From: a virus
Taxonomy: Duplodnaviria > Heunggongvirae > Uroviricota > Caudoviricetes
Reading direction: 5' to 3' (one strand)
DNA: 4,220 nt
IMG/VR virus record: IMGVR_UViG_2585427731_000006
The position numbers and the translations under genes were made by a program. How positions within the stretch are numbered: the first letter of the stretch is position 1; each line of letters begins with the position of its first letter. This document shows, piece after piece, positions 840-4,220 of this stretch. A model generated the notes under the pieces. It ran no database searches and was not told where the DNA came from. It was given only the letters and a program-made list of their open reading frames with translations.

Positions 840-1151
840 ATGCAGGCAGCCAATATCAGCCAGCCTGACGCCGATAAGTTGCTTGCTGCATCACGTGGTG
901 AATTTGTTGAAGGGATTAGTGACCCGAATGATCCGAAATGGGTTAAGGGGATCCAGACCCGCGATTCTGCGAACCAGAACCAGCAAGAAACGGAACAGAA
1001 CGACCAGAAAGCGGAACAAAACAGCCCAAATACGCAACAAAACGAGCCAGAAACGAAACAACCTGAACCAGTAGCGCAACAGGAACCGGAAAAGACTGCA
1101 CCGCCTGCGGTCAGACCGGCGGCGGCAACTGCCCTGATTGTGGCGCGGTGA
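840..1151 (+). CDS. hypothetical protein with a Q/E/N/P-rich low-complexity C-terminal tail
   Basis: Frame 0 ORF ending at TGA 1149-1151. The ORF track extends it to GTG 606, but the 606-800 stretch in this frame is W/basic-rich and overlaps the better-looking frame-2 ORF, so I place the start at ATG 840 (weak GAAG 11 nt upstream). Product: [25 protein letters not shown]...[41 protein letters not shown].... The stop overlaps the next start (TGATG, 1149-1153). Confidence 0.35.
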
Positions 1152-1918
1152 TGGGCGACGCAACATACCAAGAAACATTCGATGAAGAGAATCAGCCTGA
1201 AGTTCAGGAAGATGATCCGGAGGAAATGGAAGGCGCTGAACATCCACACAAGGAGAACACTGGCGGCAATCAGCATCACAATAGCGATAATGAAACTGGC
1301 GAGACGGCAGATCACCCAATTAAGGTGAACGGTCATCACGAAATCACATCCACCAGCAGGACGTGTGACCATCTAATGATCGACCTTGAAACCATGGGAA
1401 AAAATCCTGATGCCCCGATCATCTCAATAGGTGCAATATTTTTCGATCCGCAAACCGGAGATATGGGACCGGAATTTAGTAAGACTATCGATCTGGAAAC
1501 TGCTGGCGGAGTCATTGATCGGGACACCATTAAATGGTGGCTTAAGCAATCACGCGAAGCGCAATCTGCCATTATGACCGATGAAATCCCGTTAGATGAT
1601 GCACTGTTACAATTGCGGGAATTTATCGACGAAAACTCCGGTGAATTTTTTGTTCAGGTTTGGGGAAATGGAGCCAACTTCGACAACACGATTTTGCGCC
1701 GTTCATACGAACGGCAGGGGATCCCCTGCCCGTGGCGTTACTACAACGATCGCGATGTACGCACAATCGTTGAGCTGGGGAAAGCCATAGACTTCGATGC
1801 CAGAACGGCTATTCCATTCGAAGGTGAGCGCCATAATGCACTTGATGACGCCCGTTACCAGGCAAAATACGTTTCAGTTATCTGGCAAAAACTGATCCCG
1901 AGTCAGGCTGATTCTTAA
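1151..1918 (+). CDS. DEDDh-family (DnaQ-like) 3'-5' exonuclease with an acidic, His-rich N-terminal extension
   Basis: The three exonuclease motifs are present in the expected order: Exo [11 protein letters not shown] (D-x-E), Exo [15 protein letters not shown], Exo [13 protein letters not shown] (H...D). The catalytic domain is roughly 1373..1918; the first ~75 residues are acidic, low-complexity and His-rich ([34 protein letters not shown]). The ORF track starts at GTG 1148; ATG 1151 is more likely and overlaps the upstream stop, suggesting translational coupling. Confidence 0.8.
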
Positions 1919-1929
1919 TGTTCAACTGT

Positions 1930-1961
1930 CGCCGGTTGTGACTGGTATTCTGCAACCGGCG
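1930..1961. promoter_or_regulatory. perfect 9-bp inverted repeat (CGCCGGTTG / CAACCGGCG) with a 14-nt spacer, between the exonuclease gene and xis
   Basis: Read directly: 1930-1938 CGCCGGTTG and 1953-1961 CAACCGGCG are exact reverse complements. No U-tract follows, so it is not a canonical intrinsic terminator; it could be a protein-binding palindrome or an RNA stem-loop. Confidence 0.35.
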
Positions 1962-1990
1962 CTCGTCTGATGTAAGAGATAAAGAAATCG

Positions 1991-2242
1991 ATGAGCGAAG
2001 TAATCATGATTGTCTCTCCCGGCAAATGGGTATCCGAAGAGCAGTTAATTGCGCTGAAAGGAATAAAAAAAGGTACGTTAAAAAAGGCCCGGGAAAAATC
2101 GTTTATGGAAGGAAGGGAATATAAGCATGTCGCTCATGACGGTATGCCATGGGATAACAGTCCATGCTTTTACAACCTGGAAGAAATTGATCGCTGGATT
2201 GAGCGCCAGGCATCAGCGAGACCAAGACGTCATCTTACTTGA
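1991..2242 (+). CDS. xis: excisionase-like recombination directionality factor (putative Xis)
   Basis: An 83-aa basic protein encoded immediately upstream of, and co-oriented with, the integrase (20-bp gap), which is the canonical xis-int arrangement of lambdoid phages. The call rests on position and size rather than on a motif I can name with certainty. Confidence 0.55.
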   Translation: MSEVIMIVSPGKWVSEEQLIALKGIKKGTLKKAREKSFMEGREYKHVAHDGMPWDNSPCFYNLEEIDRWIERQASARPRRHLT

Positions 2243-2261
2243 CTAAAAGCCACACTAACTA

Positions 2262-3365
2262 ATGAGAGAAGTTGAAATGAAATATCCGACAGGCGTGGAA
2301 AACCATGGAGGGAAATTACGTATCTGGTTTGTTTATAAAGGCGTAAGAGTCAGGGAAAATCTGGGGGTTCCTGACACAGCAAAAAACAGGCGCGTTGCAG
2401 GTGAACTACGCTCCTCTGTTTGTTACGCAATAAAAACTGGTGTTTTCGACTATGCAAAACAGTTTCCCTCCTCACGCAATCTGGAAAAATTTGGTGAGGC
2501 CCGACAAGATTTAACCATAAAAGAACTGGCTGAAAAATTTCTGGCACTGAAAGAAACTGAAGTCGCCAAAACATCACTCAACACATACCGTGCCGTCATC
2601 AAAAATATCCTGAGCATAATCGGTGAAAAAAATCTTGCCTCATCGATTAATAAAGAAAAATTACTGGAGGTTCGTAAAGAGCTACTGACTGGATACCAGA
2701 TCCCCAAAAGTAACTATATTGTTACACAACCAGGGAGATCGGCTGTAACTGTAAATAATTACATGACAAATCTTAACGCCGTGTTCCAGTTTGGTGTTGA
2801 TAACGGTTACCTGGCAGATAATCCGTTTAAGGGGATCTCGCCATTAAAGGAATCAAGAACCATTCCGGATCCTCTTTCGCGGGAGGAATTTATCCGTCTT
2901 ATCGATGCGTGCAGAAATCAGCAAGCAAAAAATTTATGGTGTGTTTCTGTTTATACTGGCGTTCGCCCTGGTGAGCTGTGTGCACTTGGATGGGAGGACA
3001 TAGATCTGAAAAATGGAACAATGATGATCAGGAGAAATTTAGCAAAAGACCGTTTCACGGTACCAAAAACACAGGCGGGAACCAATCGGGTCATTCATCT
3101 TATTAAGCCAGCAATCGACGCTCTCCGGAGTCAGATGACATTAACGAGACTGAGCAAAGAGCATATCATTGATGTTCACCTCAGAGAGTATGGCAGAACA
3201 GAAAAACAAAAATGCACCTTTGTTTTTCAACCTGAAGTGTCAGCGAGAGTAAACAATTATGGTGACCATTTTACCGTTGACTCAATAAGGCAGATGTGGG
3301 ACGCAGCGATAAAACGTGCCGGACTCCGCCATCGAAAATCATATCAGTCGAGACATACTTATTGA
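2262..3365 (+). CDS. int: phage integrase (tyrosine recombinase), C-terminally truncated by IS3 insertion; likely non-functional
   Basis: N-terminus resembles the lambdoid arm-binding domain (KYPTGVENHGGKLRIWFVYKGVRVRENLG). The catalytic-domain box I Arg is present (YTGVRPGELCALGWEDIDLKNG). The ORF ends ...HRKSYQSRHTY and its TGA stop (3363-3365) is supplied by the first bases of the IS3 terminus, so the expected downstream His and the nucleophilic Tyr are missing. The start may be ATG 2277 (MKYPTGVE) rather than 2262. Confidence 0.85.
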   Translation: MREVEMKYPTGVENHGGKLRIWFVYKGVRVRENLGVPDTAKNRRVAGELRSSVCYAIKTGVFDYAKQFPSSRNLEKFGEARQDLTIKELAEKFLALKETEVAKTSLNTYRAVIKNILSIIGEKNLASSINKEKLLEVRKELLTGYQIPKSNYIVTQPGRSAVTVNNYMTNLNAVFQFGVDNGYLADNPFKGISPLKESRTIPDPLSREEFIRLIDACRNQQAKNLWCVSVYTGVRPGELCALGWEDIDLKNGTMMIRRNLAKDRFTVPKTQAGTNRVIHLIKPAIDALRSQMTLTRLSKEHIIDVHLREYGRTEKQKCTFVFQPEVSARVNNYGDHFTVDSIRQMWDAAIKRAGLRHRKSYQSRHTY

Positions 3366-3402
3366 TCTTACCCAGCAATAGTGGACACGCGGCTAAGTGA
3401 GT
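3363..3402. repeat. IS3 left terminal inverted repeat (IRL), about 40 bp
   Basis: The IS end begins with 5'-TG at 3363, directly abutting the integrase reading frame. The exact IR length was not verified because the right end is outside the window. Confidence 0.6.
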
Positions 3403-3427
3403 AAACTCTCAGTCAGAGGTGACTCAC

Positions 3428-3723
3428 ATGACAAAAACAGTATCAACCAGTAAAAAACCCCGTAAACAGCATTCGCCTGAATTTCGCAGTGAAGCCCTGA
3501 AGCTTGCTGAACGCATCGGTGTTACTGCCGCAGCCCGTGAACTCAGCCTGTATGAATCACAGCTCTACAACTGGCGCAGTAAACAGCAAAATCAGCAGAC
3601 GTCTTCTGAACGTGAACTGGAGATGTCTACCGAGATTGCACGTCTCAAACGCCAGCTGGCAGAACGGGATGAAGAGCTGGCTATCCTCCAAAAGGCCGCG
3701 ACATACTTCGCGAAGCGCCTGAA

Positions 3724-3727
<4 letters not shown>
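3428..3727 (+). CDS. insE: IS3 OrfA (InsE), transposase N-terminal DNA-binding subunit
   Basis: ATG 3428 with GAGGTG 6 nt upstream; the 99-aa product [57 protein letters not shown]...KRLK has helix-turn-helix and leucine-zipper character. The ORF track's GTG 3419 start is probably 3 codons too long. Confidence 0.9.
3690..3694 (+). other. IS3 programmed -1 ribosomal frameshift motif A-AAA-G (orfA to orfB)
   Basis: The orfA 0-frame codon AAG is at 3692-3694 and the -1 frame codon AAA at 3691-3693; the -1 frame is the orfB frame (3724 is in the same frame as 3691). This is consistent with the known IS3-family OrfAB transframe mechanism. Confidence 0.55.

Positions 3728-4220
<493 letters not shown>

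Follow-up and report, generated by a model that had tools for sequence, protein, structure and literature searches.

The DNA analysed here (the window) is 4220 nucleotides long and contains a short cysteine motif that appears to be caught between two reading frames. The motif is in frame with a downstream exonuclease and out of frame with the open reading frame that runs into it, which raises the question of how the motif comes to be translated. The initial annotation proposed a -1 ribosomal shift at an AAAAG motif just upstream, joining the upstream reading frame, a zinc ribbon and the nuclease, and offered a mutationally disrupted gene or a coincidence of base composition as alternatives. 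Its account of the letters held up. All coordinates refer to the plus strand, on which every feature described below lies. Translation confirmed that frame 2 is open from 1067, the preceding stop being a TGA at 1064-1066, and both direct reading and translation place the four Cys codons at 1097, 1106, 1130 and 1139, giving the pattern CxxCG-x6-CPxCG (1097-1144). This frame contains no ATG, GTG or TTG before the GTG at 1148 and the ATG at 1151. The upstream frame-3 reading frame spans 606-1151 and carries GAA AAG at 1089-1094, with AAG at 1092-1094, placing the slippery-type motif (1090-1094) in the phase A_AAG; tetramer and phasing both agree with those of the IS3 site at 3690-3694 further along the window. 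In the sequence GTGATGG at 1148-1153 the frame-3 stop (TGA, 1149-1151) overlaps the ATG (1151-1153) of the nuclease reading frame, an arrangement that mimics translational coupling.

The window is the whole of contig JORI01000057.1 from the draft assembly GCA_000713105.1. It holds one end of a lambdoid prophage, running from the exonuclease through an excisionase to an integrase split by IS3, and the contig ends in a repeat on both sides, the exonuclease at one end and IS3 at the other. The excisionase (1991-2242, PF06806) is identical to the xis coding region of E. coli 504239. The integrase (2277-3365) has its 3' end cut off by the IS3 insertion, and the left part of the element fills 3363-4220, with orfA at 3428-3727, its A_AAG frameshift site at 3690-3694 and orfB from 3724. 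Six complete E. coli genomes, among them the human-source genomes TW11681 and 504239, carry a junction between integrase and IS3 (3363-3365) that is 100% identical to this one. The insertion that truncates the integrase is real and inherited, and marks the Qin-like prophage beside rspB as defective.

Positions 1-1918 of the window correspond to the 3' 640 codons (residues ~184-823) of a gene for an 823-residue lambdoid-prophage exonuclease. This stretch is colinear, at ~97% DNA identity, with a single coding sequence annotated 'exonuclease' in E. coli 2015C-3101 (L001; WP_000048302), E. coli 504239 (L003; WP_000048316) and phage HannyBb (L002). In all three it is one coding sequence of 2472 nt with ydfD on one side and xis on the other, and in the two E. 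coli genomes it adjoins rspB. The synteny, dicB-ydfD-exo-xis-int next to rspB, is shared, and these relatives have the same Cys knuckle and the same PF16473 nuclease domain. The exonuclease, which matches PHROG 2082 over positions 1-822 of 823, is found in Qin-like, PPompW and related prophages and in phages HannyBb, Tritos and mEp460. When positions 460-1930 were used as a query, more than 3600 complete E. coli genomes and 17 phage records matched over at least 80% of the length; the full-length matches listed were all annotated as a single 'exonuclease' gene and were all 4 bases longer than the window. An E. coli genome carries a median of 2 copies and a maximum of 9. In contrast to the 823-residue relatives, the copy in the window lacks 5 bases at four places, has an interrupted reading frame, and contains allele-hybrid stretches that were seen in no finished genome.

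The 823-residue protein consists of a YdfE/RecE-like N-terminal region, an acidic linker rich in Q, N and E that carries the four-Cys knuckle, and a C-terminal DEDDh 3'-5' exonuclease domain. The upstream part matches Pfam YdfE_N and YdfE_C, as seen in the upstream reading frame of a second contig of the same assembly (L005). The nuclease domain (Pfam Rv2179c-like, PF16473) lies at 1370-1885 in the window, where it matches above the gathering score over profile positions 2-177 of 177 (E = 2.9e-68); the intact protein gives E = 4e-67 at its C-terminus, and AF2 models this domain with pLDDT > 90. Because the upstream reading frame, the Cys motif and the nuclease are all parts of one coding sequence in L001-L003, they belong to one polypeptide, with the motif in frame with both neighbours. 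The proposed fusion was therefore correct in its three pieces and mistaken in having a frameshift join them.

Aligning the homologues, as had been recommended, revealed one contiguous reading frame through the site, with the four Cys codons conserved in the knuckle frame. Among 80 related loci from IMG/VR, each taken with 400 nt of upstream sequence, no stop interrupts the knuckle frame anywhere in that stretch, and the residues that precede the knuckle are EKV, EKA or EKI. We also sampled complete genomes by taking 59 matches spread evenly down a ranking of 3567 records, and each of the 59 has one base more than the window between 1060 and 1160. At the protein level 119 of 120 representatives of 90%-identity clusters bear the knuckle, preceded by at least 21 and a median of 204 in-frame residues. 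The two-frame break was found in 0 of the 80 viral loci, 0 of the 59 sampled genomes and 0 of the 119 motif-bearing clusters, and was seen solely in contigs of GCA_000713105.1. The view that the motif can be translated only by way of a -1 shift is thus contradicted by the orthologues, which read through it in the frame of one contiguous gene. The methionine at ATG 1151 is an internal residue of the native protein.

Alignment of the window with L001 and L003 located the missing bases: one near 443, one at 476, two at 791 and one at 1095. These four deletions put the native reading successively into frames 1, 3, 2, 3 and 2, in agreement with the listed open reading frame fragments. The first (443-444; 1 nt, frame 1 to 3) is a deletion relative to all finished orthologues and is common to two other draft contigs, L006, which carries the ompW prophage of the same assembly, and L007, which covers the same int::IS3 locus in a sister assembly, but not to L005. 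The second (476-477; 1 nt, frame 3 to 2) turns GAGAATG or GAAGATG into GAG-ATG. The third (791-792; 2 nt, frame 2 to 3) is common to L005 and L006 and absent from the sister contig L007; a 63-nt query across it returned complete-genome matches that, among those listed, all span 65 nt. The fourth (1095-1096; 1 nt, frame 3 to 2) is the one that makes a -1 shift seem necessary. Natural alleles here read GAA AAG ATC TGC (L006, L007 and L009), GAA AAA GTC TGC (L001 and the phage PPompW_EH1846, L008) or GAA AAA GCC TGC (L003), and the window reads GAA AAG A-C TGC, the deletion-bearing sequence being GAAAAGACTGC. The loss of a single base after the Lys codon and before the first Cys codon is thus what puts the knuckle and nuclease in the -1 frame relative to the preceding sequence. 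Homopolymer slippage from A5 to A4, the reading obtained by comparison with L001, was abandoned in view of the allele with AAG ATC; the base lost is the T of ATC, or in the terms of a consensus a gap column. All four deletions fall within that portion of the gene which recurs from prophage to prophage.

The distribution and direction of the other differences point to where these deletions come from. Compared with E. coli 504239, the closest finished genome, the window is identical from 1198 to 4118, and carries 44 substitutions and the 5 missing bases in 121-1197 and one further substitution at 4119, within IS3; all of the differences thus sit in the two repeated ends of the contig. Of the 44 substitutions 42 replace a base by an alphabetically earlier one (p ~1e-10), comprising 15 G>A, 16 T>C, 6 T>A, 2 C>A, 2 G>C and 1 T>G, against only 2 A>G, at 1007 and 1094. 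The same letter-order bias recurs in L005, L006 and L007, the other draft contigs of the project, where the ratios found are 45:2, 47:13 and 62:29, whereas five control comparisons between finished sequences were symmetric. Ambiguity codes or ties thus seem to have been settled in favour of the first letter in collapsed repeats of this sequencing project. The substitution at 4119 changes TGG to TGA (G>A) at 4117-4119 in orfB of IS3, giving a premature stop where both 504239 and L007 have G; as IS3 is multicopy, this stop is probably a consensus artefact rather than an inactivated transposase.

Across 478-520 and 725-815 the window follows two natural alleles in turn, changing from one to the other base by base: B (represented by L001 and L003) and C (represented by L008 and L009). 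A search of 5426 complete genomes found no instance of the hybrid stretches at 478-520 and 750-812, the best identities being 86% and 84.6%. We found that all four deletions, including those at 476 and 1095, are reproduced by the lowest-cost gapped consensus of B and C under the rule that a gap beats a base and an earlier letter beats a later one, a rule inferred from the pattern and not from assembler documentation. At each of the four sites the window sequence is one of 1-4 lowest-cost outputs among 263-1669 possible. In these reconstructions the second copy in the window's genome was approximated by L009 and L006. Three contigs of the same assembly overlap the affected sequence and carry different subsets of the deletions: L005 has those at 791 and 1095, and L006 those at 443, 476 and 791. 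The sister contig L007 has 443 and 476 only, and differs from the window at just 3 positions over ~3 kb, from 1198 to the contig end.

Two further accounts of the substitutions were considered and rejected. Localised hypermutation, by strand-biased deamination or a DGR-like process producing G>A, T>C and T>A, does not fit, as all six later-to-earlier classes are present, including T>G, G>C and C>A; in addition, the window bases match a second natural allele, and the draft contigs are biased where finished sequences are not. A natural third allele or recombinant is likewise rejected, given the low best identities of the hybrid stretches among the complete genomes and a switch between alleles every few bases.

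The letter-order bias, the B/C hybrids, the deletions that can be regenerated and the inconsistent deletion subsets together argue for an origin in a collapsed two-copy repeat, and we consider it likely that the frame break is a consensus artefact of assembly. The assembler would have collapsed two paralogous copies of the exonuclease, one from the Qin-like prophage on the rspB side (allele B) and one from the prophage on the ompW side (allele C). Conflicting columns would then have been settled by a gap or by the alphabetically first base, producing the frame-breaking deletions, and recoding would play no part. On this reconstruction the real genome would most likely have two uninterrupted copies, GAAAAAGCCTGC and GAAAAGATCTGC. 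The alternative in the initial annotation of a disrupted multi-domain gene came close to this, in that a multi-domain gene is indeed broken in the contig, but the break is probably a product of the consensus and not a real mutation.

A less likely explanation, to which we would give perhaps one chance in six, is that the deletions are real, making the exonuclease a genuine pseudogene with several frameshifts in a decaying prophage; the part with the knuckle and nuclease may then still be made from the internal GTG at 1148 or ATG at 1151. The prophage is defective, its int::IS3 junction being common to six complete genomes, and the deletions at 443 and 476 are found again in a second assembly. 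Qin prophages of the K-12 type are said to retain only an N-terminal fragment, YdfE, and it is YdfE_N and YdfE_C that match the upstream reading frame in L005. Genuine exonuclease pseudogenes also occur in finished prophage sequences, since the copy in PPompW_EH1846 is annotated as frameshifted and has a 4-nt deletion equivalent to window positions ~842-845. However, neutral decay cannot account for the 42:2 bias in letter order, nor does it explain the base-by-base alternation between B and C. It would also have to spare 2.9 kb of adjacent unique sequence, in which another pseudogene lies and which shows zero differences, and to leave overlapping contigs of one assembly, and a near-identical sister contig, with differing sets of deletions. 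The variants themselves are present in none of the 5426 complete genomes.

That leaves the possibility of recoding, in which a hairpin would promote a programmed -1 shift at the A_AAG upstream of it (1090-1094) and so fuse the upstream reading frame to the knuckle and exonuclease. The site does have the outward features of such a signal. The tetramer is correctly phased, and of all such tetramers A_AAG shifts most readily in E. coli, with a rate of up to 5.6% that it reaches only with the IS3 pseudoknot (PMC4066793). Folding the GC-rich stretch downstream, as had been proposed, gave a hairpin at 1099-1150 of -30 kcal/mol that begins 4 nt 3' of the tetramer. This stability is marginal when compared with shuffled sequences (z = -2.0, 7 of 200 shuffles being as good), and the hairpin, which is formed by partly self-complementary codons of the knuckle, is essentially identical in intact orthologues, with just 14 near-identical variants among the 80 loci. 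The AAAAG motif is simply the Glu-Lys codon pair GAA AAG of the native protein and is not enriched in the window (13 observed against 16.3 expected); in the related loci the Lys codon is AAA in 77 of 80 and AAG in only 3. In E. coli shift-prone tetramers without a stimulator barely exceed background, at 0.147% against 0.112% (PMC4066793). Furthermore, the upstream frame is itself broken by the three deletions at ~443, 476 and 791, so there is no coherent upstream protein to fuse, and the GTG at 606 that starts the upstream reading frame falls in out-of-frame sequence. With the orthologues contiguous, the break specific to one assembly, the upstream frame incoherent and the Lys codon mostly AAA, a programmed -1 shift is unsupported; the site is almost certainly not a programmed frameshift, and we regard this explanation of the overlap as very improbable.

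The comparison with the orfA-orfB overlap of IS3, where A_AAG acts together with a pseudoknot, is instructive in this regard. The two sites share the tetramer, its phasing and GC-rich structure downstream. In IS3 the overlap is conserved and, in the identical copy of the element in 504239, annotated as a programmed frameshift, whereas the exonuclease overlap is seen only in the contigs of one draft assembly and its orthologues are contiguous and mostly carry AAA.

Were the deletion at 1095 real after all, low-level -1 slippage of tRNA-Lys on A_AAG, aided by the hairpin, could 'correct' the frame, although we think it highly doubtful that this occurs. Translation from the ATG at 840 would in that case give an N-terminally truncated protein with an otherwise native linker, knuckle and DEDDh exonuclease. 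An A_AAR tetramer is retained in the intact alleles in L006, L007 and L009, where the -30 kcal/mol hairpin follows it after 4-5 nt. One idea, taken from this arrangement of the sequence, is that a -1 shift at A_AAR in the intact alleles might give a product without the nuclease, ending at the TGA equivalent to 1149-1151.

A coincidental off-frame Cys pattern in a GC-rich overlap has next to no chance of being correct, since the GC-richness of the segment is all that speaks for it and the coding frame holds all four Cys unchanged in 119 of 120 clusters and 80 of 80 loci.

As the Cys motif lies in the native frame of the ancestral gene it is not a chance off-frame pattern, and the remaining question is what it represents. 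It occupies native residues ~551-566, within the linker that joins the YdfE/RecE-like region to the nuclease domain, and among the cluster representatives variation is confined to the residues between the invariant cysteines. The description as a zinc ribbon stands as far as the pattern goes, with its CPxCG signature and four invariant cysteines, but every Pfam match to the isolated motif falls below the gathering score. The best-scoring zinc-ribbon families are DZR, with 17.7 bits (E = 0.004) where the cut-off is 27.3, and Zn_ribbon_3, with 13.7 bits over its whole 26-position profile where the cut-off is 27. Like generic zinc ribbons and knuckles of the DZR, Zn_ribbon_3 and rubredoxin-type CPxCG kinds, it has two CxxCG knuckles, the second being CPxCG. 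Unlike them, it has an inter-knuckle spacer of only 7 residues and sits inside what is predicted to be a disordered linker, with AF2 pLDDT < 50 across most of the knuckle and linker, zinc being outside the AF2 model. Judging from the CxxCG...CPxCG pattern, the knuckle probably binds zinc.

The knuckle is kept within the E. coli-type subfamily, down to ~80% identity (P0124), and is absent from multi-domain homologues whose nuclease domains are 62% identical or less (P0127, P0128, P0131 and others). Its absence from these more distant multi-domain homologues identifies it as a lineage-specific, recent insertion in the acidic low-complexity linker. Distant homologues without the knuckle (among P0127-P0144) still keep the N-terminal region and the DEDDh domain.

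RecE, the exodeoxyribonuclease VIII of the Rac prophage, and YdfE of the Qin prophage are homologous to the exonuclease over its N-terminal and middle regions. The recE gene of Rac-SA53 is 85% identical to window positions 900-1300, and the NCBIfam model for RecE (NF007259) matches residues 242-625 with 281.6 bits, far under its equivalog cut-off of 1269. The C-terminal nuclease of RecE differs from the Rv2179c-like DEDDh domain found here. The protein looks like the outcome of a domain swap between two prophage exonuclease families, with a RecE/YdfE-like front and a DEDDh back. A literature search returned nothing on JORI00000000, nor on Rv2179c together with prophage.

Thousands of genomes already contain the exonuclease gene with this domain layout and Cys knuckle, and the biological weight of the locus is small. 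Its significance is rather as a caution, since small draft contigs that end in prophage or IS repeats can hold consensus hybrids with indels resembling recoding sites or pseudogenes. In this case a probably artefactual deletion immediately follows a Lys AAG codon and has a GC-rich hairpin downstream of it, and so imitates a frameshift signal of the IS3 type. The letter-order bias, towards A and then C, G and T, is a cheap diagnostic that could be used to flag collapsed-repeat consensus sequence in genome scans.
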